A stretch of DNA of 64,000 nucleotides from Atractiella rhizophila (Eukaryota), in NCBI GenBank assembly GCA_021432655.1, contig MU271366.1, positions 1 through 64,000 of the forward strand, read 5' to 3'. Position numbers and translations under genes: made by a program. Shown piece after piece: positions 24,503-49,868 of this stretch. Each line of letters begins with the position of its first letter. The stretch's first letter is position 1. The notes under the pieces are model-generated. The model made no database searches. It was given only the letters and a program-made list of their open reading frames with translations, and was not told the origin of the DNA.

Positions 24503-27500
24503 GCCCTACTTCATCACTCCATTGCCAACCAGGAATTTGGCTTCACTGCTATTCGATATGGACCAAAAGTATATAGGCAGAAAGGACATGTCCCCCGTTA
24601 CCCCTACCTCACCACTACACCTAGTCCTTCGACTTCAGAAACCATGGTATCCAATGGCCACAGTATCATTGTTTCACATCACTCCGCCCTTTCCATCGCA
24701 GCCTACATCGATTCACTTTTACTCCCTGCCGTCCGTCCCCGCTTCTCGATGCAACCACGTCTCCTGCCAATCTCAAACTTCGACCAGACCCCGCTTTCCT
24801 GAGGAAGAGGAGAAACGCGATTGTGGACGCGTTGGAAGGAAATAGTGTCTTTGTCGCTTGGCGGAAACCAGTGGGTTTGGAGGAGAGAAGGAGGATGCTT
24901 AAACTGAGAAGGGAAAGGAAGATGCGGATTTGAGGACCAAGGGTTGCGTTGCTGAAATGGTGAAGAAGGTTAAATGTGCTAAATGAGTATGGTAAAGGGA
25001 AGACAGAAGGCAAATTGATGTCAGTCGAATCGGTCGGTCTGCCTGGCCAAGGGATGCTGATGCCCTCTGTGTTACAGATATCGTTACTCCACCACAATTT
25101 GTGTATATTGCCAACCCACCCCCATCCCATTCCACATCGCGATTTCTCCATCTACAAACACGCTTGATCACTTTTCTATTCTGTTCTCATCCTATTTGTG
25201 CAGGCCAATATTTCCCATACATACCTGCCTCTTCTGAAAGAGTCAATTTGCACGATTCATTATTGATATTATCTGGAAGCAGCGATGGAAGTCAGAATTC
25301 TGAGAAGGTGACTCCATATGCTGGAGCCAAACCAGTCCCCTTAGTTTCCCCGCAGGTTTGTGAGTTACTCAAAGCACTCCCACTAACACAATGATCTCTC
25401 AGCGTCGTATCAAAGGGTATTGGACATGAATGGCGTGGAGTACTTTCCTTCATCGAGTGATGGACTCGTGTGTGGTCAGTACTGGTTTCGCGTCTGGTCT
25501 GGCATTGCCATGCAGCATCTCTCAGTTCCTGGCCGGATTAACATATGTGCGGTGGTTGTTAGGTCAAGCGTTGGTTTCCCACTTCCAACGCATCATTGAG
25601 TTATTCTGATGAAGTCGAGGGAAAACCTGTGTCTGCCAAAATTTCGACACTCAAAATAAATGTGAGTTACAGCCTCTGCCTCTGGCTTGCTGTGATGATC
25701 CATATGGATGTTGATGGGTAAATACTTTAGACAAGCGTCCTGCCGTCATCAGAAAACACTTCATTTCTTGCAGACTCAGGGCACAACTGGTTGGTGACAT
25801 CGACCCCATCAAAATGTGTTGCTTGTTATGGGACACTATGTGATATCCGTGATTCCAGCGGTTTCAAGCCCCAAAATTTCATTATCAAATCTTTCTGTCT
25901 CAGAACCGCTTCCTGTTGCGTTTCTTTCTCCCTCAGCTATTTGTGCACATGTGCCTACGGAAGTTTGGCGCCATCACAAGCGCGATTGTCCATTCTACTT
26001 TCATCACGATATCCTCTGGCTACAATACCTCCGAAATCTCAGTCGTCCTCTTCAGTGATCCAATACTTTGGCACATTTCTCCACGGTCCGCTTCAGGCAT
26101 CGTCAAGTCGTTTGGTCACTATTTGCCAACTTTGGTCGTCATCGGCACTGACCAAAACGGCGGCTCATCGAAACCTGGGGGGCGGAACAGTCCTGCCTCG
26201 AAGTAATAAGTAGTCTGTTCAGAAAGCACGATACAGAACCGACTGGCAAAGGTTTCTACTGGATATTAGTTCATTAAATGACACTGAACTTATTCCTTTT
26301 AATAACTATCGACATTGTCAAACGACCAAAATGTTCCCTCCATTGATAACGTTATCGGACACTGTACAATGCACAGTCAGTCGAGGTTCACATGGATGAA
26401 TCGAATGAGGAAACGCAGTGACGCTGACGATACAAGCGAGAAAAAAATGTAGTGACGTCCACAATGCACAGTCTTGTCCATTCAGAAGGTTCAAGTTAGG
26501 ACTGGGAAAGTTATAATTCCGAGAATCGATTGGATAAACTGGGTTGTGCCTTTCTTCCCTTTATCAGCTCATTCTAATGGAGTGAAGAACTGGCTCTCAA
26601 TATCAAAGTTAACGCCGACGAACCCCTCGGCCTCCACATCCAGCCTCACAATGGGCAAAACATCACGGACAGTGGGAGCTGAGGTGACTAGGATTTCGAT
26701 TGTCTTCAGATCGTGGAGGAGAAGAAACATACACCATGCCATTATGGGTACAGCAGGATCGAGGCTCACAGGACAATGACATCCTTAATCTCGCTTGGCT
26801 GATCAGGTTAGGTTCTCAATCCCAGAATTCGGCGCGTGACCTGTTTTGATAACAGACCCAGATCCTTAACACCACATATTAATGTCACTCAAAATTCGCT
26901 CCAGCCCTTAGATATTCCGGATTCAAGATCTTCGCACCTGTATGCAGATTTTGCCTCCAAACAGCGAGACCATTGCTTGTAATCTCTCAGAGATATCAAT
27001 GAAAATATAGTGTTTCATAAAATCTGTGTTTTTCAAGTATCTATATGCAATTACTGTATTTTTTTTTCGCAATCTCAAGAATGAGGTTGAGCAATCATAC
27101 CCTGTCAAAAGTCCTTTCCGACATTTTCCCTTATTCCTGGCTTTTCGCGGCAAATTCAGACAAAGTTCCCGCATTTTCCTGCATACACATAGTCCGATAA
27201 CTATGAAGAAATATTTTCTCATGCTGAGCTGGAAATTGATGGAATTTCCTTCCCTTTCCTTTCAATGTCGTACTACATCGCAGACGACGCGCAGAACTCT
27301 GATTTTTCAGTTCTGAGTCACTTTCTCGAGTTCTCGAGGATATTCAAGAAGCAGTCACCGTCAATTGCGATCAGCGCAAAACCTAGGGTGCAGAGGAGGT
27401 GCTTTACAATTCTTTCTGGTTTGTTGTCTCTTCTATTCACGATGTGGAATGGACTGCTAACCAACACGCTTCTAGTGGCAGCTTCCAGCAAAGCGATCGC

Positions 27501-28004
27501 ACGGCTTTTCATGACATAGTATAGTCCCTAACAACTTGATGACAGATTCCCTCAACCATCTTCCTCCTCTTGGCCAATCTCCGCAAGGTCTCCCTGTCCG
27601 TCAGTCTATAAGGCTTGTTAACTCCAACTCCACCTTAGCTTTCCAGCAAAGTCAGCCCATCAATCCGACCCCTCGTATCAAACGAATGAAGGACAGCTTT
27701 ACTGCCCATCTGATGGTTCCAAGGTGTACGTGTGAATGGCAATCAAACGAAATTTGCATGTGCATGCTGATTCATTACTTAACAGGTTCTTTGGCTACCG
27801 GTCAGTGTCACATACTACCTTAAGAACAACCTTGCATAGGAAAGCCCCGGTCAGTCTCCCTCTTGTGTCTAATGCTGCACTAAAGTATTTACTCCAAGAG
27901 TCACATTGTATGGTGGAATGGAGTGGAAGATGAATGACTTCTCGACGGTACATGATCAGAACTTATGTTATTATCAGCAGGCCCCGAACTTGTGGATGAT
28001 AAAA

Positions 28005-31000
28005 TTAATCACTTTCTACATCCAAACCTAGTTTATGCACAATGAACCAATCCTCAAACCATGGTCTGGGAACCACCGCAACCATTTCAGTAATGTTATG
28101 AACAGGAATCACAACAAGTACACCTGCCGGTGCAGGCTTACAAGTCACCACAACACCGTAACGATCACGGCTCTCATACTCTTGGAATGGTCGAACTAGA
28201 GCAAGATGGTGGGTAACTGAGGCCGTGGTCAGTTCCAAGAAGTAACTGACCTCGCCATATTCAACTTCCATTTTTGAGGTAGGGGAGCTGCGTCGTGTAT
28301 ACATGATGTTCCGACTGATGCGAACCTCATTCTGAGGGCGTTGCAGTTCCTTCCATCAAGTACGCACTCGCTCCCCATTTGGCAGTTGAAGACGTGCCCA
28401 TTTTGTAAAGTTACCATTCCATGCCGACAGCTCCACTTCAGTGTGAAGCTGTCGCAGATAATTCAAAGTGACATCCCTCTCAGGTCCATCGGTAAAGACC
28501 GCAGGTTCAGAGGCACGTAACAATGCAAAGGAACCACCTAATTCGAGAGCGCCTTTAGGGAGTGTACGGAGCATTCGTTTCTCCATGAGTGTGGTGTCAA
28601 TGGAGCGTAATGCTTGACACTGTGCTTGCTGAATACACTGCTTTGAGAGGTTCTGGTAAGGCTTTGATGGTTGACGTATTCTTGAGCCCAAAATGCCGAT
28701 AGTTCGCTCGAGAGTCCACTGAGTGACGTAGATAAATGGTCCAACTCGACGAGTTTGAGCCGCAAGATGCAAAAACTTGTGCAGAGACATTCAACAGAAA
28801 TTGACACGATGGATGTCCTTTTGATAATACAGCTGTTCAAACTCTTTAACGTATTCAATAATTAGTCCCTCAGCTAAGTCCAGCTCCCTTCGAGAGATTC
28901 GACGCTTTCGCAGAATTCGAATGCAGTAAACGATTTTGACGTAGTGTGAGTAGAACGGTTCAGGAATGTACCCTTCGAGCAATCCTGGTCCAAGTCCATA
29001 GAAATAAGTCTCCCACTCCTTCGCCTTATAATCAGAGTACTTGATATCAATGTTCCGAAGAAATTTGTCCCATGACGAAGGGATGTGTGTGTGAGTATTC
29101 GCAACTTCAATACCGTGCTGTTGCCAAGCTTCGCCCAAAAGAACCTCCCATTCCTGTCAATCTTCTGGCAGGATAGATGATTGAAAAGGTGCGTCCTTTC
29201 CACGTTTGCGTTTGCCTGTTTTCGCTCTTATCATGTTGGACGGATGAATCATGCCTCGCCAGAGACCCAGCATCAATTCAGGAAAATTGAGATTTGGGTG
29301 ATGCATTCCATCAACAATGAAACAGAAAGGAGGACCGTCACCAAACGTGGGTATTTCGGCGAAAGGTGTATCACGGACAATGCCATATTTTCGCTGGAGG
29401 GCTGCTGCTTTTCGAAGTCGACCAGCACGGCGCGCTGCCTGAAGTTCTTCCAAATGGGTTCGATATTCCTGGGCAGTTTCGGTGGGAAGATTATGAGGAT
29501 CATAATCTGGTCGCTCAACTTCAGACTCTTGATAGTTTGTCAGCCGGCTGAGAGGATAATAGTAGATTGAATGTCCAGGCTCATGTACTCCGATTAAGGC
29601 ACAGCCGTTAATATGACAGCCTCGACGACCTGTATGGCCAACTTCTCCCGCCATCTCACTAGCACAGATGGTATCGAAAAGTCCAAGTGCGATAAAAGGA
29701 CGAGAACGGAACCAGATATTACACTCAGAGTCGTGGATAGGAAAACCACTGATAGACAGCTTTTTGACACGTTGGAAAATTGGATAAAGAAAGGAATTCT
29801 GGTCCCAAGGTTTGTTCGGTCCTGGAATAATTGCGATAGGAATAACATATTGCTGTTTGTAGCGGATCTCTGGTGGAAGGTTGTAGTCGATCATGACGAT
29901 AAATATTGCATCTGAAGGTTTTTTGTTATTGAACACCTGAGCACCATCGAGCGAGAAGGCGAGCAGTGTGTCAGAAGGGAGAATCTTTTTCTCGTGTACC
30001 AGCTTCAAGTAATCTGAACCACAATAAATATCGTCAAACTCGTCTGGAACCATTCCTGGTAATGGATATTTCGTAAGCAGAGCTTTTGTCCGTCTCGCTC
30101 GATGCTTCGAAGCAGAAGATCCTTGAGGTGTTGCCCAACGTGCCTGAAGAGGAGTCTCAAAAGGAACAAGGAAGAACTGTTGCTGGGAAACATCCTTAGT
30201 TCGTCCACTTCGCATAGTCTTTTGTCGATAGCGAGGAAGATGGCATTTAGGGCACTCTTGAAGATCAGATCGACTACCGGTATAAGCAATGCAGGTGTTT
30301 GGACACATATCGAAAGCTTCAGGAATGATACGGCTTTGATTCCTAACAAGGCGCTTGATTTGGTCAAGAGAGAGGGTAGGAGTTTGAAATCGATCCTCGA
30401 TCCAGAGACGCAGATCGTCATAAAGGCATCCAGCAGCACGACCATGGCACATCATGAAAAGCTCGAGGGATATGATTTGTTCACGAGATAAAGGTGTATA
30501 TCCGTACTTTTCTTCGTCTTTAACGTCGTGAACTCAACACTCAGCTTCCTGAACCACTTTCTGCTCATGCAAAAGGCGTACAAGCTGCTCGTCACTCAGC
30601 AAGAGGTTAGAAACCATATCATCCACTGTTCCGGAACAATCAGCAAACTTCAAGATTTTATTCAGTTGATCGGCCCACGCTCATCCATCTCTCCGACTCC
30701 TGCCAGGCCAGTTTCCTCCTCTCCATCTGAAGAGTCGTCCTCTTCTAGATCTGTTGAGTCTTTTTCCGATAAGTCGTCCTTAGGTTCTTCCTCTCCTTCA
30801 TTTCCAACAGTTGGTCGTGCAAAGCCATCACGCACAAGTCTTCGCAATTCGACCCGCTCCACCTCAGCAAGAATGGCCTCAATAGGGTCCTGTTCACCTT
30901 CGGGAGCTGTAGTGGGAGCATCAGTGGAATGAACAGCCTAACAGAGGATTTAGGCAAGGGTATCTTTCAGTCAAATCCTTACGCTGGTTCCTCTATTGAA

Positions 31001-31213
31001 CGTGCGCGCATAGGAATCTTGCTCCTCCTCACCTTCGCTGTTACTCGCCATCTCTCCTTCCTCCTCCTCCTCATATCCATCAATCCCACCAAGATCTGCC
31101 TCACGATATCGTGCATGCCGATCAAATGTCCTCTTCGCTACTCTTCGCCACTCCCCCCCACAGTATCTGCCACAGTTGCACGCCCAATCTAGTGCATCTT
31201 CTGCACTGTCCAT
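28005..31213 (-). pseudogene. CACTA (Tnp2/Transposase_21-like) transposase with four in-frame TGA stops and a probable N-terminal frameshift
   Basis: DMCPNTCIAY...CPKC; AFSLDGAQVF...NLPPEIRY...IIPGPNKP...SFLYP; GHTGRRGC; VDGMH; KAKEW; SLHKFLH...GP...QWTLERTIG. ORFs 29157-30455, 28791-29138, 28356-28790 and 28005-28304 are all in one frame. Confidence 0.93.
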
Positions 31214-31356
31214 GACATGACTTGAGGCAGTGAGAGGAGTTGTGGAATGGATACAAAGTGAACTTGCTCACGTGCGTTGCCCACTTCCCTACTTCATTTT
31301 TTTTCAACTCGACAATCTCCTTCGTTCTGACATATACCTTTAAAGCTGAGAAGTAC

Positions 31357-33832
31357 ATGTCTGCTGCTAAACGCTCGAATACTATATCCCTTTCAGATGA
31401 AGAAGAAGAAATATGGAGTGATAACAATGGCTTGGATGATTTAGGGGAAGGTATGGTATTTTATCACATTCTCTTCGTATCATGAATTAATTGGTAGAAT
31501 GTACAGGTTATGACCCATATGAACATCTCACCGTCCTAACGCCAACACAATCTTCCCTGGCAGCCATTACGCCCCACAGCCATCTACCAGACTCTGCCAT
31601 CGTGCCACCCTCCATCAATACAACAGTCTTACGTGTTCAGACACCATTAAGGCACTTATCTCATTCTGAGATAACGTTGGTCGGAAATGCGGACGAGCAT
31701 ACCTTGGGAATATCTGGAAATGTGGTATATCAACGTTTAGTCAAGGAGGTGGAACGGTTGAGAGGACTTAATGAATCTCTACAGTACGTGTCAACAAATC
31801 TTTTCTTTCGTTTAATCTGTGGGGCATAACTATGGGTTGAAGGATGGCTATCTGTAACCTAACCTCCAATACTTCTCTTACACCTCCAGTTTCCTCCACT
31901 ACATCGCTCCAGATGCCCAAACTAAATAACTTCGACATTCCGCAACAGTATCGTGACTTCCAACTGCCTCCGCCTGCCCGAGAAAAGCCTGCTCATATTC
32001 CCTACTTCACTTTTGACGATTTCAAGAAATGGCGGACACTGTTCCCAAAGCTACCTCCTGGAGAGAAGGAAAAGCGCAAGTATGAATGGCTCAAGACTAA
32101 GAGTGGTGCACAGGTCACTGCGGAGCGAATAGCTGATCTGAAGCGGGAAGCGAGGGAGATTCTTGAAGGAAATGTATAACACTCCGCTATTCTGCCGGAA
32201 GACATGGTCTAAGATCCCTCACGTACATCGGATTCATGGAATCGCCGTACTCGAGTGCAAGTTTCCTGAGCTTACACAGTGTCAAGGACATGCCATGGCG
32301 GACCACGTCTTTCGTGAACTGAAGCATCGGCAGCTCGAGAACCTCAACGCGGTGGATAGGCGGGCAGCGAAGCGGGTTAAGGTAGAAGAGCAGGTGGAAA
32401 GTGTGACACAGGGGCACGATGGCTGCATGTGCGACGACCAAACAACTGTGCCTGGAAGAAAGGAAGTGGAGAAGAAGAAGGTAGCGAAGTTGAAAGTCAA
32501 AGAGAATAAAAGAAGAAAACGTTGAAGTCTTTCCTCAATTGTGTGTCTTCTCTGTGAAACTCTTCCAATTTTCTGACAAAGTATGTAGAAGAACTACTTC
32601 TGAGGACATTCTAGATCCTACCTTACGGAGCGCTGCCAGGTCCGCAGTCCAACCTCAAAATGAGCTTGCGAAGAAATCTGAAACCAGTAAGGTTTCCACC
32701 CTCCGCTTGACCGCTGTTCAAGGTATCATCAGCTATTCTGTCTTGCGATTTAAACGATAATCCCGCATCTCCCATGACCTCCATCGCCAGTAGCTACAGG
32801 TTACAGAATCCTACTGTCCCCGATGCTAATGGTTTGTCTACTTCTCCTTGATCGCAAGCTCACAGTGACAGCTAAAGTACCTTTGCTTTGAATAGGCTCG
32901 TCACGCCTAAGTCGGATTCAGTCAGGACCGACAGGTGGCATTTCTACTGAAGGTGTCAAGGGGATGTTGAAATCAGTTTGTCTTTTCCCCTAGCTCAACC
33001 AAATGCCATTCTGATGTTCTCGAAAGGCGTTAACGGACAGCGGGTCTGTCAGTGTGTGGAATGTCGAGTTGGAGATTCCTGCTCCTGGTAGGACTTTGCA
33101 TGCCATTTGACTAAGTCGATGTACGCTAACTCATGATGCACAGGCAGTCCTGTTCCATCTTCTGCAGTGCCATTCACACAGAAAACTGTGCTACCGGCGC
33201 GGTCATTTGGCAATGCCATGGCAGTCAACAACGTCGCTGCAGCTTCAGCTTCTCTACATGATAAGGTTCATTATTTCTTTGATTAACACGCGGATAACAG
33301 GCATGTGTAATGTAGGCAAATACGGGAGGAGCTGCCGTCTGTGCACCACCATCACTCAAGCGGATTCAAGGAGGGCGGTCAGGTCCAGCTTCGTCTCAGG
33401 GCACATGAGGCTAACAGACCGCATTGTTCAGTGAGATGTATCGGCGCTCTCGAATCGAACAATTGGAAAAGGAACGTGCTGATGGCAGCAACATCTTGGA
33501 ACCGAACTGGAAAGAGGAGTACAAGCGACTTTCTCAATCTGAAAAGCAGGTGAGGTATTGTTACTATCCCACAAATCTATTCGCTTACCAGTAACCGTTT
33601 CAGATGTGGAACAAGCGATACAAAGACCTCAACGCATCACTTCATGATCATAGCACGACTCCTGTCATTGTCCCCTCGACGACGGAGGGACAGTTATAAT
33701 ATGCTGCAAGACAGACTTGTATGGAAAAGCGTAGAAGAGCTAGGAAGATGGGTTTCAGAGGTACCTGCAGGGGATCTGATGACGGAGGAGGTGCGCACGG
33801 CCAGGAAAGAGGGGGGAGGAGGTGCAGGATAA
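31357..33832 (+). CDS. Accessory (ORF2) gene of CACTA no.1, multi-exon, disrupted; 3' limit uncertain
   Basis: Starts MSAAKRSN, about 145 bp from the transposase start, divergently; short GT-AG introns; motif KTWSKI...VLECKFPELTQCQGHAMAD; frameshift near 32165. Confidence 0.65.
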
Positions 33833-34890
33833 TACAGGGAAATGCAGCTATTCACAATCTATACATTTGATTTAATTCTATTATACATTCTCAATATGTT
33901 TTCTGCTTCGCGAAAATCCAGGAAATAATCAGCAACCCAGGCCATAATTTTCGGTGTCTCCTGCATATTCCAGCAGGACGGAAATTGTTGTAAAAAGGTC
34001 GGGAAATGTCGACAAACGACGGAAAGGACTTTTGACAGGGGATAACCCCTGGTACAATTTGTAGGGTTGGCCCTACCCGTAAGTTTAATCAATTCAATTC
34101 GCAATTCATTCGCAATTTGCGGTTTTAGTTTCGCTTCCGCAATTGCCGCGGGGACCAACTTGTTGGCTCCGTTTGAGTAGTTGCTCGACCCTTATAGGGG
34201 TAGGGTCGACCCTAGCCGATGGTTGAACGGTTCGACAACAGCGACACACCATGACTCATTGATGAAGGTTGATGAATGTCAGTCCAAAGTTTTTTCGAAT
34301 TTTTTTTGGTTTGAGCTTGGTTTGAGGCCCTGGAACCTTGCAGGGCCGTCCTAGTGCTGAGCTGGTGCTGAGCTAGTCACCTAAGACACCAGGAAGGCAC
34401 TGTCACTGAGGTTAGTGCCTGGCTGGGGCTGGTTTAGAGGCGATTTTTGGCTCCGCAGCAGTGCCTTGCAGGTGCTTTCAGTACCTTCGTGGTCACTCCC
34501 GAGTGCTTTTGCTCAAATCGAAAATTTATGCTTTCAGTGCACAAAAGGAGCGCTTGAGGAGCATTGGCAGTGAGGGATTGGTGGCTAGTTTTAGTGCATG
34601 GATGGAGCTATTTAGTAACTACATAGTGCTTAACTTGAGCGCATGTTTAGAGCCGCTTCAGTGGCGGTCCAGTCACTCGATAGATATGACGGTATTGGAT
34701 TGCAAAAGGTAAGAGAAACCGTAGTGTTCCATCTCTCTATCCCTCCACACCAATATCCCCCACAACAACGCCACTGGTAACGAGTCCGCCACTTCCATTC
34801 ATCCCATTCTGCCTATCCCCATGCATCTTGAGGAGCCTGAGAAGCTCCAGAATTTTTTTATCGATGGAGCTGAATTTTGTGATGATGACT

Positions 34891-36222
34891 TCAGGCGCGA
34901 AGTCCTGACAAGTCTTGAGATGAGATACTGCTCCATGGAAGAAAGTGAATGCATACCTGGTTTTGCAACATCTTTTTCCAGTGCTCCGCTGTCCAGCAGT
35001 TGCTCTTTGCCATTTTTTTGGCCTCCAAGAGCTGAGATTTTCTATCCGAAAGATCCAGAAGTGGTTTGAGCTTGTCTACGTCCATGCACAACCCTACGAT
35101 CTCCTCTGGAGACAGAGCAGCGGCGGGATCATTTTGCTTATTTGACCTTCCCCTCTTCTTTTTATCTATGCCAGCACCATTAGCCCCGACAGCAGGTGCC
35201 AGCTTGAGTGGAGTGGGGCGAATATCGAGCAGATCGATGGATTGTGGTGGTTCCTGTGCTAGGCGGAGCGAGCTGGAACTGTGAGGTAGGTGAGGGAGAT
35301 TGTTGAATGTAGTGAAGGGGTTCTGCGACGTCGGAGGGGGACCGAGGTCAGCGAGAGGCTGATTATCGAGTTGAAGAGGTGGAGGATTGAGTTGGTGCAC
35401 CTTTTGGGGGACGGACAAGTTCGTATTGATGTGGTTTTCGTGATGAGGGGGTTCGTCTCCCATGGGAGTGTGTGGAGGCCAGTCGTTGGGAGGAAGAACA
35501 GGGCCAGGAGACGGGGGAAGGATATTGATGGCGGTTAGACTTGGCTGCTTTCTGGTTTGGTCTGCATCTCTAATGTATCCTTCCAGTCGCAGTCTTTGTA
35601 GCAAGCTTTCCGAGTAAGTGGCTGGCACCATCGTGTTTTTTAGTGCTTTTGCTGATCGGGTGTCCTTGCCATGTTTGGTTAACCTCCAGCAAAGGCATGA
35701 GAACATAGCACTCACGATTACGGAATTGCTGCCACCGCCTTCTAGCCAAGCGTCGGCCAGACTCTCCGCAAGTCTTCCTACGCAGGTAAAACTCAACAAC
35801 ATTGGCGTCGTCTCCTCCCAATCAGGATGTGCATTCTTCCACCGCCTGCCTAACCGTCGTGCGACATGTGCACCTCGTACGATGACTCGCAGCAATTCCC
35901 CAATTGCATCTCGCGAGCCAACATTCTCCCATCTCTTTAAGTGAAAAAGGGTATCTTCTCCAAGGCTATTGTGGCCCAACATATCCCCTCGAGCGCTGTT
36001 CTGCAGATCTTCAGAGCTGTAATCGTCCTCATCAGCTTCGATTGGGAGATTAATGTCGTATTCTGCTTGCGTGATTGATTTGAGAAGGCGTTTAGTGGCT
36101 GCATTCGCGACGGTCTCGCCTGCACTGGAGTGGGAATCGGCATGCCACAGGGGCAATACTCCTTCGACGATAAACGTAGCCAGTACATCAAGATTTGTGA
36201 GAGTGTCATGGTCAACAACCAT
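34891..36222 (-). CDS. 443-aa open frame inside CACTA no.2, probably downstream exon(s) of the accessory gene; function unknown
   Basis: Long open frame with a helical-looking N-part and a Pro-rich disordered segment; same strand as 36543-37478. Confidence 0.55.
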   Translation of the reverse strand: MVVDHDTLTNLDVLATFIVEGVLPLWHADSHSSAGETVANAATKRLLKSITQAEYDINLPIEADEDDYSSEDLQNSARGDMLGHNSLGEDTLFHLKRWENVGSRDAIGELLRVIVRGAHVARRLGRRWKNAHPDWEETTPMLLSFTCVGRLAESLADAWLEGGGSNSVIVSAMFSCLCWRLTKHGKDTRSAKALKNTMVPATYSESLLQRLRLEGYIRDADQTRKQPSLTAINILPPSPGPVLPPNDWPPHTPMGDEPPHHENHINTNLSVPQKVHQLNPPPLQLDNQPLADLGPPPTSQNPFTTFNNLPHLPHSSSSLRLAQEPPQSIDLLDIRPTPLKLAPAVGANGAGIDKKKRGRSNKQNDPAAALSPEEIVGLCMDVDKLKPLLDLSDRKSQLLEAKKMAKSNCWTAEHWKKMLQNQVCIHFLPWSSISSQDLSGLRA

Positions 36223-36542
36223 GGCTCGAAGCTCATCTAGCTATGGTTAGTTGTGGATCTGACATGGATGGGGAACACAAACTAATTATGGCAGGAATGG
36301 TGTTAGATGTGCCAGGCAGATCTTTCTGCTCTGTAGCCACCGGATTCTGATTAATCCTCTTCTCTCTTAAGGGATCAGTGGGTAGGTCTGCCTGCATAAA
36401 ACATAAAGTACTATTTGGAGATCAAGAAGAAATGACACACCATTGCTCTAGACTTCTTCCCATTTCTGTTCCCCATAATTGGGACCATTGTTCCGCTGCT
36501 CAAAGCATGCCCTCCGCTCCCTGCACCCTATCTCAAACCCGG

Positions 36543-37478
36543 TCATATCCACCATAAAAGGTGCATACCTTGTTCTCCGTCGAAGCTTTCCACTCTCTTT
36601 CTCTTCTCATTCAACCTCTTCACACCATCAATACCACCCTTTCTCTTCGGTGCTTCCTTAAGAGCTAGAGTTCCCCCGCTATCTTGATCTCCGCCAACAC
36701 CACAAGGAGTTTTGTCGTCATCGTCATGATTGCTTCCGCTCGCATTTCTAAGAACTGCTGTGACAAATATGCGAGCCATCCAGTCGTTCTTTCCGAGACA
36801 AAGTACCGAGCTGTAGTCATCTTCAAGCCTGCGCAGTATGTTGGGAAGGTAGGTAGTCTTGCAGATTCCTTCCTGGTTCTTGATTGACCTCGACGTGTCC
36901 AGGTAGGATCTGACGTAGACAGTAGCGTCGTTGCGGATAACATCGGCAGTTCCCTTTGATAATGGTATCGAGCCAGTGACAGTATCGTCCAATTGGTCGA
37001 AGACAAGCTGCTGCAGAACTCGCAATGGATCGAGGAGGTTGTTCTGAGCGCCAGTACGGGTCGCAGCTACAGCGTGCTTACGTTCCCAAAAGACCTCGAG
37101 CCTCTCAGCCTCTTTTTCATCGATAAGGGATCTGTAGGGTCGTACTGGCTTCGTGACCCAGTCCTTTGTATCTGAATCAGCGACAGGATCGGTGGACAAG
37201 ACAGGGGTGCCTTTGATGCGAATTTGTGCAGTCGAGTTTGCAGACAGCGGGGGAGGTTGTCTAATCTTCTCGAATTCCAGCTGCAACCGTTCCACTTCCT
37301 CATTCTTCTCCGTGTAGAACTTCTTCCACTTCTCTTTGTCTATTCTTTCTCTCTCCAAAGATGTATCTAGATCAAACACCTTGGATTCCAGCTCCCGCAC
37401 GTAAGGATTTGAAGAGAGGTCGCGTCGAGTGGCAATTTGGATGTAGTCGATAAAGGAAGCGTCTTCTGGGGTGATCAT
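36543..37478 (-). CDS. Accessory (ORF2) gene of CACTA no.2, first exon
   Basis: 311-aa ORF with a coiled-coil-like N-terminus and motif LRRLEDDYSSVLCLGKNDWMAR; divergent from the transposase. Confidence 0.7.
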   Translation of the reverse strand: MITPEDASFIDYIQIATRRDLSSNPYVRELESKVFDLDTSLERERIDKEKWKKFYTEKNEEVERLQLEFEKIRQPPPLSANSTAQIRIKGTPVLSTDPVADSDTKDWVTKPVRPYRSLIDEKEAERLEVFWERKHAVAATRTGAQNNLLDPLRVLQQLVFDQLDDTVTGSIPLSKGTADVIRNDATVYVRSYLDTSRSIKNQEGICKTTYLPNILRRLEDDYSSVLCLGKNDWMARIFVTAVLRNASGSNHDDDDKTPCGVGGDQDSGGTLALKEAPKRKGGIDGVKRLNEKRKRVESFDGEQGMHLLWWI

Positions 37479-37780
37479 GTTGCAAATATCTCTAAGAGGG
37501 TTGCTGCAGGGCGTTATTCGAGCAAGAAATTGAGAGGCTTGCAGAGTTTCTAAGGCGAGAGTCTGGAGCAGGCTACGTCGTCGTCAATCTTCGGCCACAA
37601 CGAAAATACAAGTTTGTTTGGACTTTGCGCATGCGCAACTTGGAGTGCATGCACCAGAAGAAGGGAAGCATTAGAACTTCTCTTCACAACACAGAAAAGG
37701 CCGACATTACCTCGACTGAGACCCAGATGCATTACGTCCATCTGAACACCTTCGTGTTAAGCATCCTGACCCTCCTTTTC

Positions 37781-40700
37781 ATGACATCGGGGTCTTCCAA
37801 GTCGAGTTCTTCCCATCCAATTCCTTCTTCCAATGTCATAAGATCCACCAGAGCCTCTTCTACACCTTATCCTCCTGTTCGAGCTCGTGCGAAAAAGAGG
37901 AGGCAGGAAGAAGATGAATTGCGCTCCGCAACACGTGCCGCCCTACGCGTTGACACCATTGCGACTTGGGGCCTGTCCTTCAAAGACCGCACGATTCCTC
38001 TGGATCCAGAGCGCCCAAGGAGTCTGCCATATTTCTCAAAGGTTCAGCTCAAGCTCCAACAATCTACTGAGCAATCACCTAGTCTTCAACATGAAGCCTT
38101 CAGTTTTCCTCTTCCTCTTCCCGAACTCCATCATCGAGATCATCCTGGTGGTGGAGAGCAAGTGGAAGACGATGTTGAGATGGGCGAAGGACAATGTATC
38201 TTGGATGGAAGAGAACTGAGAGAAGGGGAGGAGGGGATGGAGCCTGACGTCGTTGACCCGGAACCTGAAGAGGAAGCGTATGACAATCCGAATCCTGAAA
38301 ATACCACACGACCTGTTGGAGCTGAAAAACTCACCCATAACACACATCTCTAGTAAGTACAACTCAAATTAAAGATATATGTTGTAGGGACTTACATGCT
38401 GGTTTGTAGCAAGGTCCGCGATATCCTCATGCCACTCTTTGATGACCCTTCTGATGATCTCCCTACTCTTCCGCCAACCTATGAGGACAACATCCTTCCA
38501 TTGAGCGACAAGGAACAACTTACTTTGGATGAATTCCGGGTCTGGCATCGAAACAATGAGAAGGAGGCTAGTTATGAAGGTCATCACCAGAACTGGACAT
38601 CACGGAATCACAAAATGTATACCCTTCCAGAGGCAAAGAAGATGATGGCGGAGCTTAGTGGGCTTGATGGGGAATGGTTGCCAATGTGTGTAGCATCCTG
38701 CTGCTCCTATCTTGGAAAATATGAAGGATTGGATCGGTGAGCACAATGCAAAAGCTCAGATCAAAAGTGCTAACAGATCATAAAGATGCCCACATTCGCG
38801 CAAGATAAACGGCGTGACTGTGGCGTGCAATCAACCTCGCTATTCTCTTTCTTATGGACGTTCTCCGATCCCAGGAGATCCAACAACTGGAAAAAAGCAG
38901 AATCAGAAAATGTTCCTATTTTGTAACCCGCTCCCTCGAATCAAAGCAATGTTTCGAGCACCACAGAGTGCAGAGAAGATGGGGTATTTTGGTAGGAAGC
39001 TGGGGGAGACTCTGGCAAAGACTGAGTTTCTGTTGGACAAGCTGAAGATGGGATACACGTACAACGATTTTCACCACGGTACGGTAGTCCAGACACTTGC
39101 CAAGGACGACATTGGCTTTATGGAAGACAAGCGTGAATCCGTTTTTATCGCTTCAACGGACGGTGCAGCCATCCACGCTACCAGAGACTCCAACATGTGG
39201 TTTGTCATTCTCACCTTTCTTGGATTCGACATGCGGGTCAGAGCAAAGCGGCTACACACTCTCTTTACGCTTGGTGTTCCTGGTCCAAATAATCCGGTCG
39301 ACATCCAATCCTTCTTTCTACCATTCTATAAAGCGATGGCGAAACTTAGTGGAGGCTTGTAGATGTGGGATGCCTCTTGCCGAACATGGTTTCTTTGGAA
39401 AGGATGGTTGATCAACAAGTTGGGTATGTTGCACGGCTCTAACGCAGTTAGTTCATGCTGATAGTAAACGAAGGGGATATGTTGGGTTCTGCCAAAGCAA
39501 ATGGCTGCACTGGCCATCAAGGCAAGTGCGGCTGTCATTTTTGCAACATTATCGGTCAGCTTCTTGAACAGCACTACTACTTCCCTTGCATCTCAATTCC
39601 GCTTGACGATGGCAGCCTTCCTAATTACCGACCAGCTATATACGACCCTCTCAACCTGCCTATGCGCACTACCACTGAGTACACTCAGACAGCAAAAGAT
39701 CTCGCCCTCGCTACAAGCCGGAAGATGCGAGCGGAGACAGCACGCGATCGTGGTGTCATTTCAATTACTCCAGTTTCAGGATTGAGAACTTTCCGTGATC
39801 CTTGGACCTTTTTTGCAGGAGATCTTGCCCATCTTCACTGGAAGAATGACGCAGAACTTATTTTTGACTCCACAATGGGCATCAACAAGCAAGAATCTCT
39901 TCCCGAACCATGGCATCCGACACAGGAAGTACGAGAAGAGTTTGGAAATATGGTCGAGCGCTCGAAGGTCGACATTCCTTACGATTTCTCCCAGGCCACT
40001 CCTCGAAATACTTATCGTTTCCGAAACACTCAGTACAAAATGCACGAATGGTGGGATGTGCACGACTGGTTGCTTATTCCCTGTCTTTCTCTTCTTGGAT
40101 TTCCAACCAAAATCCTGGAAATTCTCGACACATTTATTTGTGGCTGCCGGCTTGCATGGCAGCACAAGATCACAGAACAGGAACGGCTTCAGATTCGGGA
40201 GCTGTTTGCTTCGTTTGTTGTCAACTGGGAGAAAGTTTACGTGCATGGGGAACGCTCTCGTCTTAGCCGCATGCCAATGTGTATTCACCACCTCTTGCAC
40301 ATCGCCGATTGGATTCTCTGGTGGGGTCCTGGGATTCTTTATTCTCAGTTTCCGATGGAGGGTATGATTGGATATTTGAAGAAACACATTAACCAAGACA
40401 ACAAGTATCAAGAAAACCTTTTGAATCAGGCACTCCTTCAAGAACAAATGAATATTGTCGATGTCCTATATCCGCCTCGAAGTCTGATCCACGAGAAAGC
40501 TGGCGCTCGCTTTCGCCGATTTTCTTCGAGTTCCTCTCACAATTCAGTCTATTCACCTCGCTGGGCATCAATCCCTCTCACCAAGCTCGCCAGGCTGCAA
40601 GGCACCGTGCATACCGAGGAATGGATTCATGAGCTCAAATTGATTCGAGATTACTGCGCTTCCCGTGGCAAAAATCTTGATGGTGTAGAGTTGGAGCAAA

Positions 40701-41230
40701 TTGTAGCAAAGTGGGAGCACTGGGGCCGATGTGCCTTGGTTAATGGAGATGTTATTCGCTCTCGGAAGCTTGAAAGATCTTGGAAGTTTGCAGCTCGGAA
40801 AGCTTGCAGGTTTGAGGTGAGCTAGAGACAAAAGATTGGTGGTTTTGGTCTGACCGACGAGGTACTAGGGCGTTAACAAGGACGGAGATGTTTTCTACGG
40901 CAAAGCCATCGTCTACATTCGCGTCCCAGAGTCTTTCTTCGAACCCACCGCTAACGGGGCTGCCGATCATCTTTTCGCTCTCACCCAACTTTTCCGAAAG
41001 TACCGGAGCCGCTTCAGCAGCGAAATCCTTTGCCAATGGAGCAACACTTTCTGCCTCGTTCCTATTGACCAGATACGGCGCTTGATTGGCATTTTTCAAG
41101 CGGAAGACGGGGAGGGAAGAAGGATTGTTTGGATTCTTCACCATCATCACTCCGATACAATAATTGATCCAATACCTGAGCCGAAGGCAGACCAAGCTCT
41201 TGTTGAAGGAGATGCAGACCAAAGTGATGA
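37781..41230 (+). pseudogene. CACTA (Transposase_21-like) transposase, multi-exon, near intact with one in-frame TAG at 39360-39362
   Basis: PMCVASCCSY; IASTDGAAI...GVPGPNNPVDIQSFFLP; GDMLGSAKANGCTGHQGKCGCHFC; GDLAH; YKMHEW; CIHHLLH...WGP...QFPMEGMIG; short GT-AG introns. Confidence 0.93.
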
Positions 41231-41734
41231 AATGTATATACCTGACATAGACTCATTATAACACTCGTACCCACTCTATTTGGTTTATTCCTGAATTCAT
41301 GAAGTATTTGAGTTGTATGCATTTGTATTTACTTTTTTATTCACATATTTATAATATGACCATGAGATTGTATTAAAGCAGAACCTCGAAAAGATACTCA
41401 AGTGACAGTATTCAGAAATTTTCCTCAGATTGCGATGGCAATGGCATATGAGTCACATTTTGCTCAGTCCAACCGACACTCTTCCTTTTCCTTCAGGCAC
41501 TGTACGGTCCTGTTATTCAGCTCTATCCTGGCACTATTTGCACCAATCGCTCTCTATCTCAGCACTAAGCCGGCCCTGCAAAGTTGCAGGGTTTGAGGTG
41601 TCATATATTTGTGATATACAAGGAGAAAGGTAGAGGTTTATGAGACAGGAATACATTAGTATCTGTAACTAAATTATAGAGCAATAGTTTGGTACTATTC
41701 AACATTTAAAAATCTTCATGAGATGCTCATACCT

Positions 41735-43689: not shown

Positions 43690-44381
43690 GAGATATAGGA
43701 AGTGCCCATACGTATATCTTTGAATCCTCTGCCACCTTTAAGAAATACTTATCCAGAATTCGTTGGCCAATTGCGGTGCCACCTTGAATTGCTGCATGTT
43801 TATCGGGGACGTGAATGTTGCTGTCAAGTTCATATGTTTCATAGAGGCGAGAAAGATGGACACCAATATTATTGAAGAGGGGGATGACACAAGCTATATT
43901 AGCGAAGCTGGTCTTGGACATCAAGTCTGTAGCCTGTTGGAACAGCTGAACCAGATATGTCAGAAGATCAGTGGCGAAAAACACAGTATCACACCTGGAG
44001 AGTTGAGTTTGCTTGCTCCATGATCTCCTACTCTGCTCTGGTCAATCTGCAGCGCTCAAGCTTTAAGCTTGGTTTACTACATATATTCGTTAGTGCATGT
44101 TTTAAGCCCAAGGCTCCATCAATCATTGCGCCTTCGCCATTTACAACATGTGGGCAAGCCATGACAAGGTGGATGGGAGGAGACAGATGTTTGAGGGGAT
44201 CTTCGGGATCATCCTTCTTAAGAGCGACAACCTCATCATCTAGTTTACTCCTCAGTGCATCATTCAGCGCCACCCTCTTTTGTCAGATTTGCAAGCTGTT
44301 TCATCAGTCACCAATGATAAGCGAGTAATTGTAAAGTAGACTGGGAGGACTACATTAGCGAGCATAAACTGAGCCTCCGAT
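43690..44381 (-). pseudogene. hAT transposase C-terminal-half fragment
   Basis: AMIDGALGLKHAL...LTRAE; LFQQATDLMSKTSFANIACVIPLF...ILDKYF...SKIYVWA. Confidence 0.75.
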
Positions 44382-47360
44382 TAGAGGTGTCTACGAGTAC
44401 GGGATTCGCGGGTACTCACGTTGCGGGTACTCACCCACAACAAGTTACGAGACGGCCGTTTGGCTTTTTTCACGAGACGGGTACCTCTTGTGCCGTACCC
44501 ACACTGTACGCAAATCATCCAAGCATCAGCCTGGGTATCCCTGCTGTGCTAGGCTCCTCCGCTGCCCCAATGGTCCAATCCAACCAACCCTTCCCAACCA
44601 CAAACGTCCAGCTGCTGCATGGACATCGACAGGGCTCTCTTAGAGTCGCAACTGCTCGCCTCTAGTTTTCTTTCATCTCAATTCGAATCCAAACAAGTGC
44701 CCTTTTGTCCCCTCCTCTTCACGACCAACAACGCTCGACACCAACCATCTATCTGTGATATTCTACGTGTACGATTCCCGTGAGCATCATCTGATGGCTT
44801 CTACGCCAGACTTTGAGATTCTTTCCTTGTTCTTTTTGTCAAGTTATTTCTGTAGTAAGTCTTCCTTTAAAAGTTGCTTGTTGGACTAGTAGCTAACACC
44901 ATCTTCAATCCAGAGTTGAATTCGCACTACAACATCATGTCTGAAGCTGAGGCAGAAGGCCCGGTTTTGCAGAACAATCCTCACTCCAAATCCTTCTCCT
45001 CAACCCCAATCAGCTCTCAGAAGGATGACCTTGCCCCTACCATCAATGCCCCGAAGAGAAAGTTGGTGAAGAAGCCTCATGATCCCGCTTTGGATTCAGA
45101 TTCAGACCTTTCTGATGATGAAAATGATTTCCGTAAGTCTACTTCGCTCATATTTCAAGAGCCGTATGTTTACTACTGGTGCAAGGTTGCCGTAAGCGCA
45201 CCTGGGTCTCCTAGAAGACAAGGGAGCTCTATGCTCATTTTTGTATTGAAAAAGCGCAGGGATATGAAAGGTTACAATCGGAGGACGCTTCAAGGAGAGT
45301 TATACATTGCATATTATTGCAAAGAGTGTGTTACTGCCTACTCATTTCCTTTCACTGACTTTCTGCTGTCCAGATCACCAGAAAGTCCTCCCCTTCTTCG
45401 CGCCATAAGCGATGTTACGACTACCAACCTGCGCAAGCACTTCAATAGGTGCATCCTCGAAAGAAATCCCAATGCCAATAACGACATTTGCTGTCCTCTC
45501 AGCTGCACATACACTCGCGCCGCCTTTCGTGTTCTGTCAACACAGTGGATTGTTGAGAGCAGACGGCCGTTCTCGATTCTTCAAGCTTCAGGACCGAAAA
45601 CTTCAAGAGATTCTGCGCGTGCTCTACAATGGAATTAATATCCATGGCCGGACGACTGTATCACTGGACATTAAGCGGTATTACGAGCTTTCGAAGGCAA
45701 TTGTTGTGAAGGAACTCCAGGTTTGTTCTTTTTCACTCCAGGAATCAGTTAGCATAGTACTTATGATTGTATTGGCAATGGGACAGACTCAACGGGGCGC
45801 ACTTCATTCAACAACTGACGTCTGGACTGCTTCTAATCGCACAAATCTCCTCACGTTGACGATACATCGGTACAAAGATGACATGCTTCAGCAATTCCTC
45901 CTGGATTTAATCCTGTAAGTTTCCGCCCCGTTCGTGGCTTTGACGAAATACTTATTTTGCTCATGGTCAGTTTACATGGACGGCATACGGGCGAACTGCT
46001 TGCGAGAACGATAGCAGCGACGTGGGATGAGTTTAAGATTTGTGGAAAGGTATGCAATGTTTTATCTTTGTTCACCTCCAGCGCTGAATCCGATTTCCTA
46101 GGTTATCACACTCAGCGGAGACATTGCTTCCAACAACCTCTCAGCTGCTGAAAGACTTAGAACTGAGATAAAGTGGATAACGGGGAAGGACACATTTTTA
46201 GGCAAGAATGCCTACTCTCGGTGCTCGGGGCATGTTGTGAATCTTGTTATGCTGGTAAGCAACTCTTTGTTAGAGATGTCAACGAGTTTGGTACTCGTGG
46301 GTACTTGTGCCACAGGTACCCATGCACAACAAGTTACAAATCAGCTACAGAGGGTAAATTTTCATCAGGGGTACCTGTTCGTATTCCCTGCTAAGTATCT
46401 AAGAGTACTCATGAGCATATGTCCTGAAATGGCAGGTACATGTGGGGTACTCGTATGAAAGAGTTAGAGAGAGTTTTATATCAAATTTTAATCTTTTTCA
46501 CATTCAAAATGGCTCTATCTGGATCTGAGATACAAGTAATAGTGGTGTTTAAGTCATAAGTAATGTATAATAAGTCATCTATCTAAACTAATATGTCTAA
46601 ACTGTAAAATTATGTTGATGAGTAGAGTCTAAGTCAATATAAGGGTACCCGTGAGTAGTACTCGTGAGTACAAGGGTACCTGTGTCAAAGGTCACAACAA
46701 GTTACAAATCAGGCTTTAAGCTGATCGATACTCGTGAGTAAGGGTACCCGTACTCGCGAGTCCTACTCGTTGGCATCTCTACTCTTTGTTTCTTTATTTG
46801 ACTTCAACTGCATGCTCATTCTGATACAGATGTGAGCAGGCTATGTACTCACTATTCCTCTATAAACGTGGCAAAGGAGAAGGTGATATCGACGAAGAAG
46901 AAGTGCTCTTTGGCGCAGTTCCAGAGAATGAGGTTGACGAAGGAGAAAACGACGCCGATGTGGAGGCTCTTCTCAACCAAGTCGGCGACCTTTTGAGCAA
47001 AATGGAAGCTGAGGAAGGAGTCGAAGAAGAGTCGGAGTCGGAGGTGTTCAAACCCTTGGCCAAGTTAACAGAAGACGAAAAGAAAGCAGCGAAATTTCTA
47101 TTAACCAAGGTGCGTTATCTCAACCCTTTGCCTGAGCGCTCCCTCCTATTCACACTTAATGATGTTGACTTAGGTTGTACACATGGCAAAGGGGATTCAT
47201 TTTTCCACACCGAAGGCAGAACTGCTAAAGTCGTTGGCGAAAGAGAATCAAGTCGAATATAAGGAGCTAGCACGGGCAGTAAGGTGTGTTAAAACTTGTT
47301 GTCGTTACAAATTCTAACGTCTTCTTGGTGCAGGCACCGCTGGAACGCTTACCATCTTGC
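44382..47360 (+). mobile_element. hAT element: left TIR plus 5' two-thirds of the transposase, truncated at the RW motif
   Basis: TIR TAGAGGTGTCTACGAGT at 44382 with GGGTAC subterminal repeats; TTNLRKH; WIVESRRPFSI; STTDVWT; HTGELLA; DIASNN; RCSGHVVNL; HRWNA. No right TIR seen. Confidence 0.9.
46271..46781. mobile_element. Non-autonomous hAT (MITE), 511 bp
   Basis: TIR TAGAGATG(T/C)CAACGAGT at both ends; 8-bp TSD CTCTTTGT (46263-46270, 46782-46789); many GGGTAC/GTACTC and ACAACAAGTTAC repeats. Confidence 0.95.
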
Positions 47361-47385: not shown

Positions 47386-48798
47386 TCATGGAAAGTGGCA
47401 GAAGGGGCCATCTGGTGAATCCTTCAGGGTGCCGATGTCGAGTTCTTGGATGTTGACGTTGTCCAATAGGCTACCGACGGCCGCAAAGGAGGATCCTATG
47501 AAGGATAACTTCGAAATCCACGGCATCATTTCGAGAAGCCAATTGATGATATGTACGCTGGTCGCATGCTGCGGTTCCACGGCGAGTTCCTTGAGCGGCG
47601 GAAAGGTTATATGTTGGGGTGACTCTCCTTTCTCGTCAGAGTCGATCTCGTGAACCGCACGACCTTGGAGACGTTCGATCGTCATGTTTTGAAGATGCGG
47701 GCAATTGATGCATAGAAAGAGGCTAACTTCTGACAGTCCCCGTCTAAGGTGCATGCATTTGAGACCACGCAAGGCGCGAAAAGCTAATATCATCTCAGCT
47801 CCGAACATAAAATCGTGTCCCTCCTTTTGGTTAAAGTGCACCATATCCAATTCGTCGAGATACTGTCCTAATTTCTCCAAAACTTTGAAGAATGTTGTGA
47901 GGTACAAACTGTGCTCGACCTGAGCATTGCCGGACAAAGTGGAGTGTAAATCGTAATGTCGCAACGGGACTACGGTCATTCTCAGCTTCCGTACCATACT
48001 GCTGAGCGATGCAGTCATCGAAAGCACAAAGAGGAGAGGACAACAAGCAGTTGCCTTTGATATCTTGATCTGAGAAAATATCGCTTGATGGCACGGATTG
48101 ACGAAGCGTTTGCTGGTAAGTTGCAGATTTCGCACGCCCTTCACGTCCAGGCATCCAGCAACCCTTACAAGCAGTTCAACCGGTAAAGCCATCAAAGCAG
48201 AATTGCAGGTTGCCGTCACAAAGGAGGTTGCAGTCAAAATCATGCATGATTCACCTTCTACCAGAAACGTGTCACAGAGCAGAACGACAGGTCTCGCCGT
48301 GGAGAGAAAGGATGTGACGAGAGAAATCTCGCTGATCCACAAGTGAAAAATCGGACATAAATTCTGCAGTAAGAGAATACGAACCCTTCCATCACTTCTA
48401 AACCATAATCCATCGTAACAGGTGTCATCCTCCAGATCGTGAGGAATATAACGATTGTGAGGCGAAGGAGGGACAGGAACAAAAGGGAAAATGGGCTGGG
48501 CTCGTTCAGGAGGTTCCGGAAACCACTGACAGAAAGATTGCTCAAACTGCAGACCACTTTGGGTGAACATAGTTTCTACCAGTGATGTACCCACTTGGTT
48601 GAGGAGAGACACCTTGATGCAATATTTGGAATCTTTTGGAATATCCCGCTTCACAGTGTTCACAGCCGATTTGATTGCAGCCAGACATGAAACTCCAGCT
48701 CGCAGATGTTGTTGGATAGCATCACGAAGGCTGCACAGGAAGGTATAAACACGTGCATGCCTTGATTTTCGCGGACACTGCGCCAATATCACCAACAT
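47386..48798 (-). CDS. F-box domain protein (470-aa open frame; probably more exons upstream, to about 49.7 kb)
   Basis: LMALPVELLVRVAGCLDVKGVRNLQLTSKRF...CHQAIFSQIKI followed by LRR-like repeats (CPHLQNMTI, PPLKELAV). Confidence 0.7.
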   Translation of the reverse strand: MLVILAQCPRKSRHARVYTFLCSLRDAIQQHLRAGVSCLAAIKSAVNTVKRDIPKDSKYCIKVSLLNQVGTSLVETMFTQSGLQFEQSFCQWFPEPPERAQPIFPFVPVPPSPHNRYIPHDLEDDTCYDGLWFRSDGRVRILLLQNLCPIFHLWISEISLVTSFLSTARPVVLLCDTFLVEGESCMILTATSFVTATCNSALMALPVELLVRVAGCLDVKGVRNLQLTSKRFVNPCHQAIFSQIKISKATACCPLLFVLSMTASLSSMVRKLRMTVVPLRHYDLHSTLSGNAQVEHSLYLTTFFKVLEKLGQYLDELDMVHFNQKEGHDFMFGAEMILAFRALRGLKCMHLRRGLSEVSLFLCINCPHLQNMTIERLQGRAVHEIDSDEKGESPQHITFPPLKELAVEPQHATSVHIINWLLEMMPWISKLSFIGSSFAAVGSLLDNVNIQELDIGTLKDSPDGPFCHFP

Positions 48799-49868
48799 TT
48801 CACGCTGACATCACGAAATACCTACCTTGAAACTGAAATTCGCAGGTGGGATTAATGTCCTTCCGATTAGAACGCTGGGATTTAAATCACACTTTAAATT
48901 GAAAGACATGGCCAGCAAATCCCCTGCTATATTTTTGAACGTCATTAGGAACGATGGCCAGCTACGAAGCAAACCTACGAAGAACACCCCGTCCTGTGTC
49001 GTCAGAATCTGAGTCTCAGGGGTCGTCCCGCATATTATACAGGTCTTCTCCAAAGCGTTCATAGCTGCTGTATGCTAAAGGAAGCGGATCAAACTACCGA
49101 GCATTAGACAGATTGGACCGACAAATAGAATACAAACAGGTATGTCACCATATCAAGTCAACGACAAAGTTGGTTGCCACGCGTGCAATGTCAAATGTTT
49201 GTTGGTACGCATGAAAATGTCAGAAAAAACATTTTTTAGTCTTTCGACGATATGATTGGCAATCTTTCCAGTGTGAAGAAGTACCTCCTGTACAATGCCT
49301 TCAGAAGAACAATCACTTTCAAGAGATAGCGATAGAATACTCACTCGTGATAGCGATGGTTTCCGAAATAGTTGAACAGTCTGCACACGGTCGACTGGGA
49401 GTCGAAGGAATGCGCTGAATGCTTTCACGAGGGGAAGAATGATGGATGATGACTCCAACTCATCCGAGAAAAGGCGGGGGCCTTCCAGCCATGGTTCTAG
49501 GTCGTGATGTAGGAGATGGTGACAGAATTGGTCAAGGTCAGCGGCCCCCATAGTTGCCGCAATTGTGGCCACGCTGGCGACATCGGCCACTGCGACTTCA
49601 ATTCCTTGACCTTGGATCCGTCGCAAAATTGTAGAGGTGGTTTCATCGGCGTAGATATGAAACTCCCACGGTGTAGCGACGAGGAGGACAGCTTCACAAT
49701 GGAGCTCGCCAAAAATATAGGACTATGGGATCATGGTTTTGACACCTGCTCTGGAAACAGTTGAGGAGATTACATACCTGAAAGTGAGAAACATTTGCGC
49801 CAGGTAGTCGAGCCGAGAATATCCTGTCAGTGACGTGTAGTTTGATCATGTTGAATAATAGAGCTGTC

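Follow-up and report, generated by a model that had tools for sequence, protein, structure and literature searches.

A transposase frame that is broken four times by TGA, each time directly after a T, raises the question of whether a genome defence aimed at one trinucleotide has been at work or whether a more ordinary process has left this pattern. The frame lies in a 64,000-nucleotide stretch of the Atractiella rhizophila genome (contig MU271366.1, positions 1 to 64,000), referred to here as the window. It runs on the minus strand from 30623 to a TAA at 28005-28007 and is interrupted by TGA alone. An earlier sequence-only reading had described a single frame with four TGA codons, no TAA, TAG or frameshift and a T before every stop, and our own reading of the frame agrees. 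It had also proposed that TpCpG-specific hypermutation knocked out an otherwise intact element, and had guessed that the host belonged to the Pucciniomycotina. The lineage was guessed correctly. An RPB2 piece (373 aa) of this genome matches P0122 of A. rhizophila at 100% identity, with the next matches at 83-87%, and NCBI taxonomy places this species in the Atractiellomycetes, Pucciniomycotina, the subphylum of the TpCpG group. It is therefore fair to test the TpCpG idea here. The RNA polymerase second-subunit family has two near-equal matches in this genome (G000:C800:12058-13176 and G000:C338:26420-27538, equal in score and length), which are either a gene duplicate or two haplotypes.

The frame belongs to a DNA transposon with the following parts.

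27100..34040, no strand assigned: Tnp2/Transposase_21 (probably CMCT clade) DNA transposon copy with CCC...GGG ends, 6,941 bp, delimited by inverted arms and sister copies
27100..27126, plus strand: left terminal inverted repeat, from arm comparison and end alignment
34014..34040, minus strand: right terminal inverted repeat, from arm comparison and end alignment
30983..31213, minus strand: predicted transposase exon 1, ATG at 31213 (inferred gene model)
30938..30982, minus strand: predicted intron 1, 45 nt, GT-AG, with both splice dinucleotides retained in 5 of 6 covering copies
30679..30937, minus strand: predicted transposase exon 2, containing an acidic stretch (inferred gene model)
30626..30678, minus strand: predicted intron 2, 53 nt, GT-AG, with both splice dinucleotides retained in 6 of 6 covering copies
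28005..30625, minus strand: transposase exon 3, the catalytic core with the four TGA codons inside, from frame reading and homologues
29616..29963, minus strand: Transposase_21 match (Tnp2, PF02992), E=6.2e-09, 35.8 bits against a cut-off of 28.6

The inverted arms of the window copy cover 27097-27126 and 34014-34043, and sister copies align from 27100 and end at 34040-34043. A search of the genome DNA with the element gave at least 60 matches (40 of 62 candidates were scored), and the near relatives comprise 11 other copies or pieces that are 88-99% alike. Two of these, C1L and C1R, are separate partial copies, which differ at 15 sites over the roughly 550 bases that they share. One relative, G000:C25:2898-4388, is a non-autonomous copy of 1.5 kb with an internal deletion, 98.6% alike and bearing a 7-bp duplication.

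In the predicted gene model, splicing out both GT-AG introns would give a single frame of 1,036 codons from 31213. Exon 3 has 25 homologues at 26-37% identity, basidiomycete and metagenomic, among 5,966 candidates; PF02992 is found in 23 of them. D226, D317, a GCxxNGC motif near 340, DGMH at 438-441 and E639 align with invariant or consensus columns, the canonical CMCT spacing being inexact in the window copy. Elsewhere in the genome, a distant relative on C602 (L029) aligns across exon 3 residues 71-872 without a stop at 56% identity, and another on C149 (L015) is free of stops but has frame breaks; both are possible sources of transposase in trans.

The four stops were compared with the sister copies.

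30534..30536, minus strand: stop 1, CGA>TGA, after TGT; TGA also in C1R, CGA in C5 and C88, CAA in C2
29157..29159, minus strand: stop 2, CGA>TGA, after GAT; CGA in C1L and C88, CAA in C2
28791..28793, minus strand: stop 3, CGA>TGA, after TGT, at a conserved Arg; TGA also in C88 and C2, CGA in C1L and C203
28356..28358, minus strand: stop 4, CGA>TGA, after ACT; TGA also in C1L and C2, CGA in C88 and C203

The comparison that the sequence-only reading recommended thus showed that each of the four sites has CGA in some sister copies and that two also have CAA, the CAA codons reflecting mutation of the same CpG on the opposite strand. The four stops are real C-to-T mutations at CpG, as had been supposed. 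Arginine as the original residue holds as well, from the CGA codons and from the 28791 site, where 13 of 15 aligned homologous transposases have R. The codon that precedes stop 1 also arose by a CpG transition (CGT>TGT), in a G-CG context. Only stop 2 (29157) is private to the window copy. The codons at 28791 and 28356 each read TGA in three of five copies, which belong to different branches, and this is more sharing than a uniform rate predicts; CpG hot spots, gene conversion or mosaic assembly may account for it. In the deepest paths of contigs from sequencing run X1, positions 29159 and 30536 have the base of a CGA codon; because rare variants are lost in such contigs, they cannot serve to confirm the stops of the window copy itself. 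Runs X3-X5 (wetland, root, rhizosphere) each contributed one shallowly covered piece of 234-243 bases and were left out.

The cause of such mutations should be visible in the wider C>T spectrum. Private C>T changes in 12 copies number 46/626 at TCG, 35/427 at ACG, 31/271 at CCG, 46/280 at GCG and 162/11,981 at non-CpG cytosines. In the repeats C>T at CpG runs at 4-8 times the non-CpG rate, on both strands and in all 5' contexts. We also made a consensus-free count of nearest pairs, unpolarised, over 189,069 columns in four transposon groups: the element's own family, the second Tnp2 family described below, 30 of 123 RVT_1 matches and 30 of 151 RVT_2 matches. Changes number 870/6994 at TCG (rate 0.124), 757/4436 at ACG (0.171), 527/3425 at CCG (0.154) and 716/4572 at GCG (0.157), against a non-CpG rate of 0.041. 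In pairs at least 97% alike the rates are 0.044 for TCG, 0.065-0.074 for the other CpG contexts and 0.014 for non-CpG. The spectra come from Atractiella repeats alone, without a Microbotryum positive control; a consensus that favours C inflates all rates, and rates of that kind were not relied on. Since the copies share ancestry, the p-values given here are optimistic. CpG observed/expected is 0.66-0.68 in the two Tnp2 sets and 0.88 in gene-rich DNA (237 kb). The retroelement sets lack CpG depletion (1.14 and 0.89) yet show the CpG excess in their pairs; the higher value belongs to the RVT_1 loci L083-L112 (Ty3/LINE-type), which are CpG-rich despite CpG transitions between pairs, while the Tnp2 elements are CpG-poor.

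This pattern is very probably ordinary CpG decay: a dead Tnp2-type copy in which methyl-CpG has been deaminated in a silenced repeat, without a 5' preference. Host enzymes of the DNMT1 and DNMT5 types would most likely have methylated the CpG sites of the transposon, and 5-methylcytosine on either strand would then have become thymine by deamination. None of the 5 sequencing runs listed is a bisulfite or nanopore run. The several-fold rise of C>T at CpG is seen whatever the 5' base, the nonsense outcome is mostly CGA to TGA, and T-TGA follows from the codon make-up of the gene. A search for DNMT1, DNMT5 and RID homologues had been suggested, and it succeeded for the first two. A DNMT5-like gene lies on C133, where one exon is about 50% identical to proteins with PF00145 and SNF2, and a DNMT1/Masc2-like gene on C27 has an RFD above the cut-off, a BAH below it and methyltransferase motifs I and VI recognised by eye. 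No RID-like gene was found in the genome with the PF00145 search, which is insensitive and missed even the DNMT1-like gene. A genotype with DNMT1 and DNMT5 accompanies CG methylation in Basidiomycota, according to the available part of PMC7862722, and the accessible text of PMC12210899 gives Pucciniomycotina both enzymes and neither RID nor DIM-2. The baseline CpG excess is attributed to 5mC deamination in PMC3318451, as far as the available text goes.

The closest competitor, which we regard as unlikely, is a CpG mutator that acts on repeats whatever the 5' base ('CpG-RIP'), for example deamination aided by the DNMT1/Masc2-like protein. In its favour, CpG transitions in repeats stand at 4-8 times background, and the portion of PMC4352252 available links CpG signatures in Pucciniomycotina transposable elements to a Masc2-like DNMT1. 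In one old copy, C12, changes switch strand 14 times against 19.9 expected, as such a process might leave them. Against it, no same-strand runs were found in the other 4 of 5 copies tested, and over the identity bins CpG changes increase in parallel with transversions and with changes outside CpG, which is clock-like and shows no burst. A RID-like gene was not seen either, though that search is too insensitive for this to count as absence. As judged from sequence alone, an active context-free CpG process is indistinguishable from passive deamination.

TpCpG-targeted, RIP-like hypermutation, which would have killed the element as in Microbotryum, rusts and Rhodotorula, is very improbable. What speaks for it is that the host belongs to the Pucciniomycotina, where 4 of 4 species in the available part of PMC3318451 carry the signature, and that all four stops are T-CGA>T-TGA. 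Within the element's family, window copy included, TGA codons opposite Arg follow T in 11/17 cases against 98/201 for surviving CGA (OR 1.9, p=0.31). The context spectrum points the other way. Private changes in the 12 copies give TCG 46/626 against VCG 112/978, an OR of 0.61 (95% CI 0.43-0.88), and nearest pairs give 870/6994 against 2000/12433 (OR 0.74). With identity bins pooled, the four groups range from 0.61 to 0.86, all below 1, the RVT_2 (Copia-type) set alone being not significant (OR 0.86, p=0.17). The OR is 0.70 at synonymous third positions and 0.75 outside open frames, and TCG stays lowest overall when T>C changes are roughly corrected for. No subset had a significant TCG excess, the highest OR being 1.09 (p=0.84). 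In a site test modelled on PMC3318451 TCG never ranks first: its z is 1.29 against 2.15 for GCG, and 1.44 in a second alignment, below the outlier threshold of z>2.5. Long attack should also deplete the target, whereas TCG is over-represented in repeats (rho 1.05-1.18, against 1.02). The Microbotryum RIP-like index, positive where the process operates, is -0.45 for the element, -0.26 to -0.43 for the repeat sets and -0.29 for gene-rich DNA; its formula follows the accessible part of bioRxiv 10.1101/2022.08.03.502670, with TCGA used as the overlap term. Same-strand runs are absent from 4 of 5 copies. Among private changes the CpA rate is 0.017-0.022 against 0.073-0.164 for CpG, which is not the CpA/CpT target of ascomycete RIP. 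The central claim of the sequence-only reading, a TpCpG-specific preference, therefore fails in seven tests: TCG is the least or nearly the least mutated CpG context, and in no test did C>T at CpG favour a preceding T, the outcome which that reading itself had said would count against it.

Why, then, does T stand before all four stops? The chance of 1/256 that had been quoted uses the wrong null. The family's in-frame CGA codons (n=31) are preceded by T in 19 cases, G in 8, A in 3 and C in 1, and with these contexts four of four stops after T has p=0.123. As 61% of the gene's CGA codons follow T, four T-TGA stops arise without a special target, and as CGA is the sole codon made into a stop by one CpG transition, TGA predominates among nonsense changes. 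If CpG decay alone is assumed, the probability that the four stops all come from CGA and all follow T is about 0.03, a rough figure for an element picked post hoc among many decayed ones. The T before CGA is itself in excess (p=0.002 against a third-position T of 35%), which is the reverse of the trace expected from prolonged TpCpG attack. Of the CpG cytosines in exon 3 of the window copy 29 are mutated, 10/118 after T and 19/175 after A, C or G (p=0.55). In other copies TGA opposite Arg follows T in 17/58 cases, against 399/1,133 for surviving CGA, and stops there include G-CGA>TGA and A- and C-preceded ones. The CGA codon counts, exon 3 counts and site-test z-scores treat C1L and C1R as one; the 12-copy spectrum with both split gives the same result.

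Selection for nonsense changes was considered and is not needed, because four stops among 29 CpG changes is the expected number (p=0.37).

The weakest explanation, readthrough or recoding of TGA (as Arg, Trp or Sec) in a working transposase, had already been judged less likely and can be dismissed, since, although the frame is interrupted by TGA alone, the stop sites are polymorphic between copies (CGA, TGA or CAA), other copies have TAA and TAG stops and frameshifts, homologues have Arg and not Trp at the conserved 28791 site, of the 111 long frames in gene-rich DNA 56 end in TGA, and no TGA fixed at conserved Trp or Sec sites was seen.

The sequence-only reading also reported a fifth stop of the same kind in the accessory gene and took the element to be otherwise intact. 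Neither statement stands, as the second gene and the flanks show.

31357..33699, plus strand: putative accessory gene, probably spliced, limits approximate, from frames and indels
32523..32525, plus strand: the supposed fifth stop, an out-of-frame TGA behind a 1-bp insertion near 32516-32519
27093..27099, plus strand: left 7-bp flank AATCATA, equal to the right flank of copy end G000:C16:71944 and not to the element's own right flank
34041..34047, plus strand: right 7-bp flank GATAACC, equal to the left flank of copy end G000:C1:63404

In the accessory gene the window copy has extra bases near 32167 (1), 32439 (3), 32519 (1) and 33463 (1). At the supposed fifth stop, all six near copies covering 32523-25 read TTGAAG, and upstream of 32523 one base of the window copy is absent from all four aligned near copies, of which three read GTT GAA (Val-Glu) and one ATT GAA. 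The TGA is thus a frameshift product with no CGA>TGA change, and the 1-bp insertion upstream rules out a point mutation. Perfect intactness fails on the insertions near 32167 and 32519, and also on the flanks. Of the 5 elements whose two ends lie together, 4 have target duplications of 7 bp (C25, C246, C5 and window 34328-41591). The fifth, the window copy, lacks a matching 7-bp duplication, and its flanks match those of two other ends. These cross-matching flanks indicate a mosaic of the left end of one insertion and the right end of another, which may have come about through an exchange of sequence between copies or through an assembly error; no N gap lies inside the window copy.

The element at window 34328-41591 is the second Tnp2-like one. 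It has CCC...GGG ends, its terminal 18 bp are palindromic, and its 7-bp target duplication, TTTGAGG, is perfect; its transposase pieces lie at 38784-40825 on the plus strand, with other genes on the minus strand, and it has many relatives in the genome at about 70-75%. Directly behind the first element, window 34047-34327 shows by eye another, partly palindromic CCCTG-type end, and the second element seems to be nested in this third, CCCTG-type one. Elsewhere in the window are Helitron-like pieces at 1231-3293 (by eye), a tandem array with a 20-bp unit at 7140-7265, a hAT-like stretch with a weak Hermes DNA-binding match at 44381-46337, an F-box-like frame at 47386-48810 and an assembly gap at 60994-61389.

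The element resembles the EnSpm/CACTA and TRC elements of the CMCT clade (PF02992; PMC1636069 and PMC12730594, in the parts available), with Transposase_21, a transposase predicted to be spliced, a second gene and terminal inverted repeats, and with candidate C(2)C and H motifs that lie among the acidic residues at inexact spacing. Animal TRC elements have CCC ends like those found here, in the accessible text of PMC1636069. It has the Transposase_21 domain of strict EnSpm/CACTA elements but lacks CACTA termini, its ends being CCC...GGG. The target duplication of the family is 7 bp, against 2-3 bp in strict EnSpm/CACTA and 2-5 bp in the CMCT clade as given in the portion of PMC12730594 available. 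No target-duplication length for Lanisha was found in the literature searched, the available part of PMC8245031 giving none; one supplement of PMC12730594 has no Lanisha or Atractiella match, and 7-bp CMCT families may stand in its other supplements.

The decay itself resembles methyl-CpG decay of Basidiomycota repeats in its several-fold C>T at CpG on both strands, its want of a trinucleotide outlier and the DNMT1-like and DNMT5-like genes present. It differs in that the accessible part of PMC3318451 describes this pattern from Agaricomycotina, whereas Atractiella belongs to the Pucciniomycotina and its TCG is mildly spared (OR about 0.6-0.75). With the TpCpG hypermutation of Microbotryum, Puccinia, Melampsora and Rhodotorula (available parts of PMC3318451 and PMC5381629) it shares the subphylum, C>T at CpG in repeats and four stops in TCG context; it differs in having no TCG rate excess, no TCG depletion and a negative RIP-like index. 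The same portion of PMC3318451 finds TpCpG in all four Pucciniomycotina tested and terms it conserved, a view repeated in the available text of PMC5381629 and PMC12730594, while that of PMC4352252 gives a CpG signature only. Our literature search, outside which most subscription papers lay, found no paper that brings Atractiella together with methylation, transposable elements and genome, and the papers listed for the species contain nothing on repeats in their titles or the opening lines of their abstracts. As far as that search reaches, Atractiella is a counter-example to TpCpG hypermutation conserved across the Pucciniomycotina. Neither a TCG-specific defence nor a recoded TGA holds at this locus; the cause is ordinary, with a modest side result. 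On balance we lean towards A. rhizophila being a Pucciniomycotina lineage whose repeats decay at CpG without TpCpG preference, with TCG spared by about one third; in that case the signature would not extend to the whole subphylum, and a flanking-base preference of DNMT1/DNMT5 that varies from class to class would be a more probable source of it than a distinct RIP pathway. The contrast between Atractiella and the TpCpG lineages thus bears on the question of whether that signature comes from a RIP-like pathway or from methyltransferase preference.
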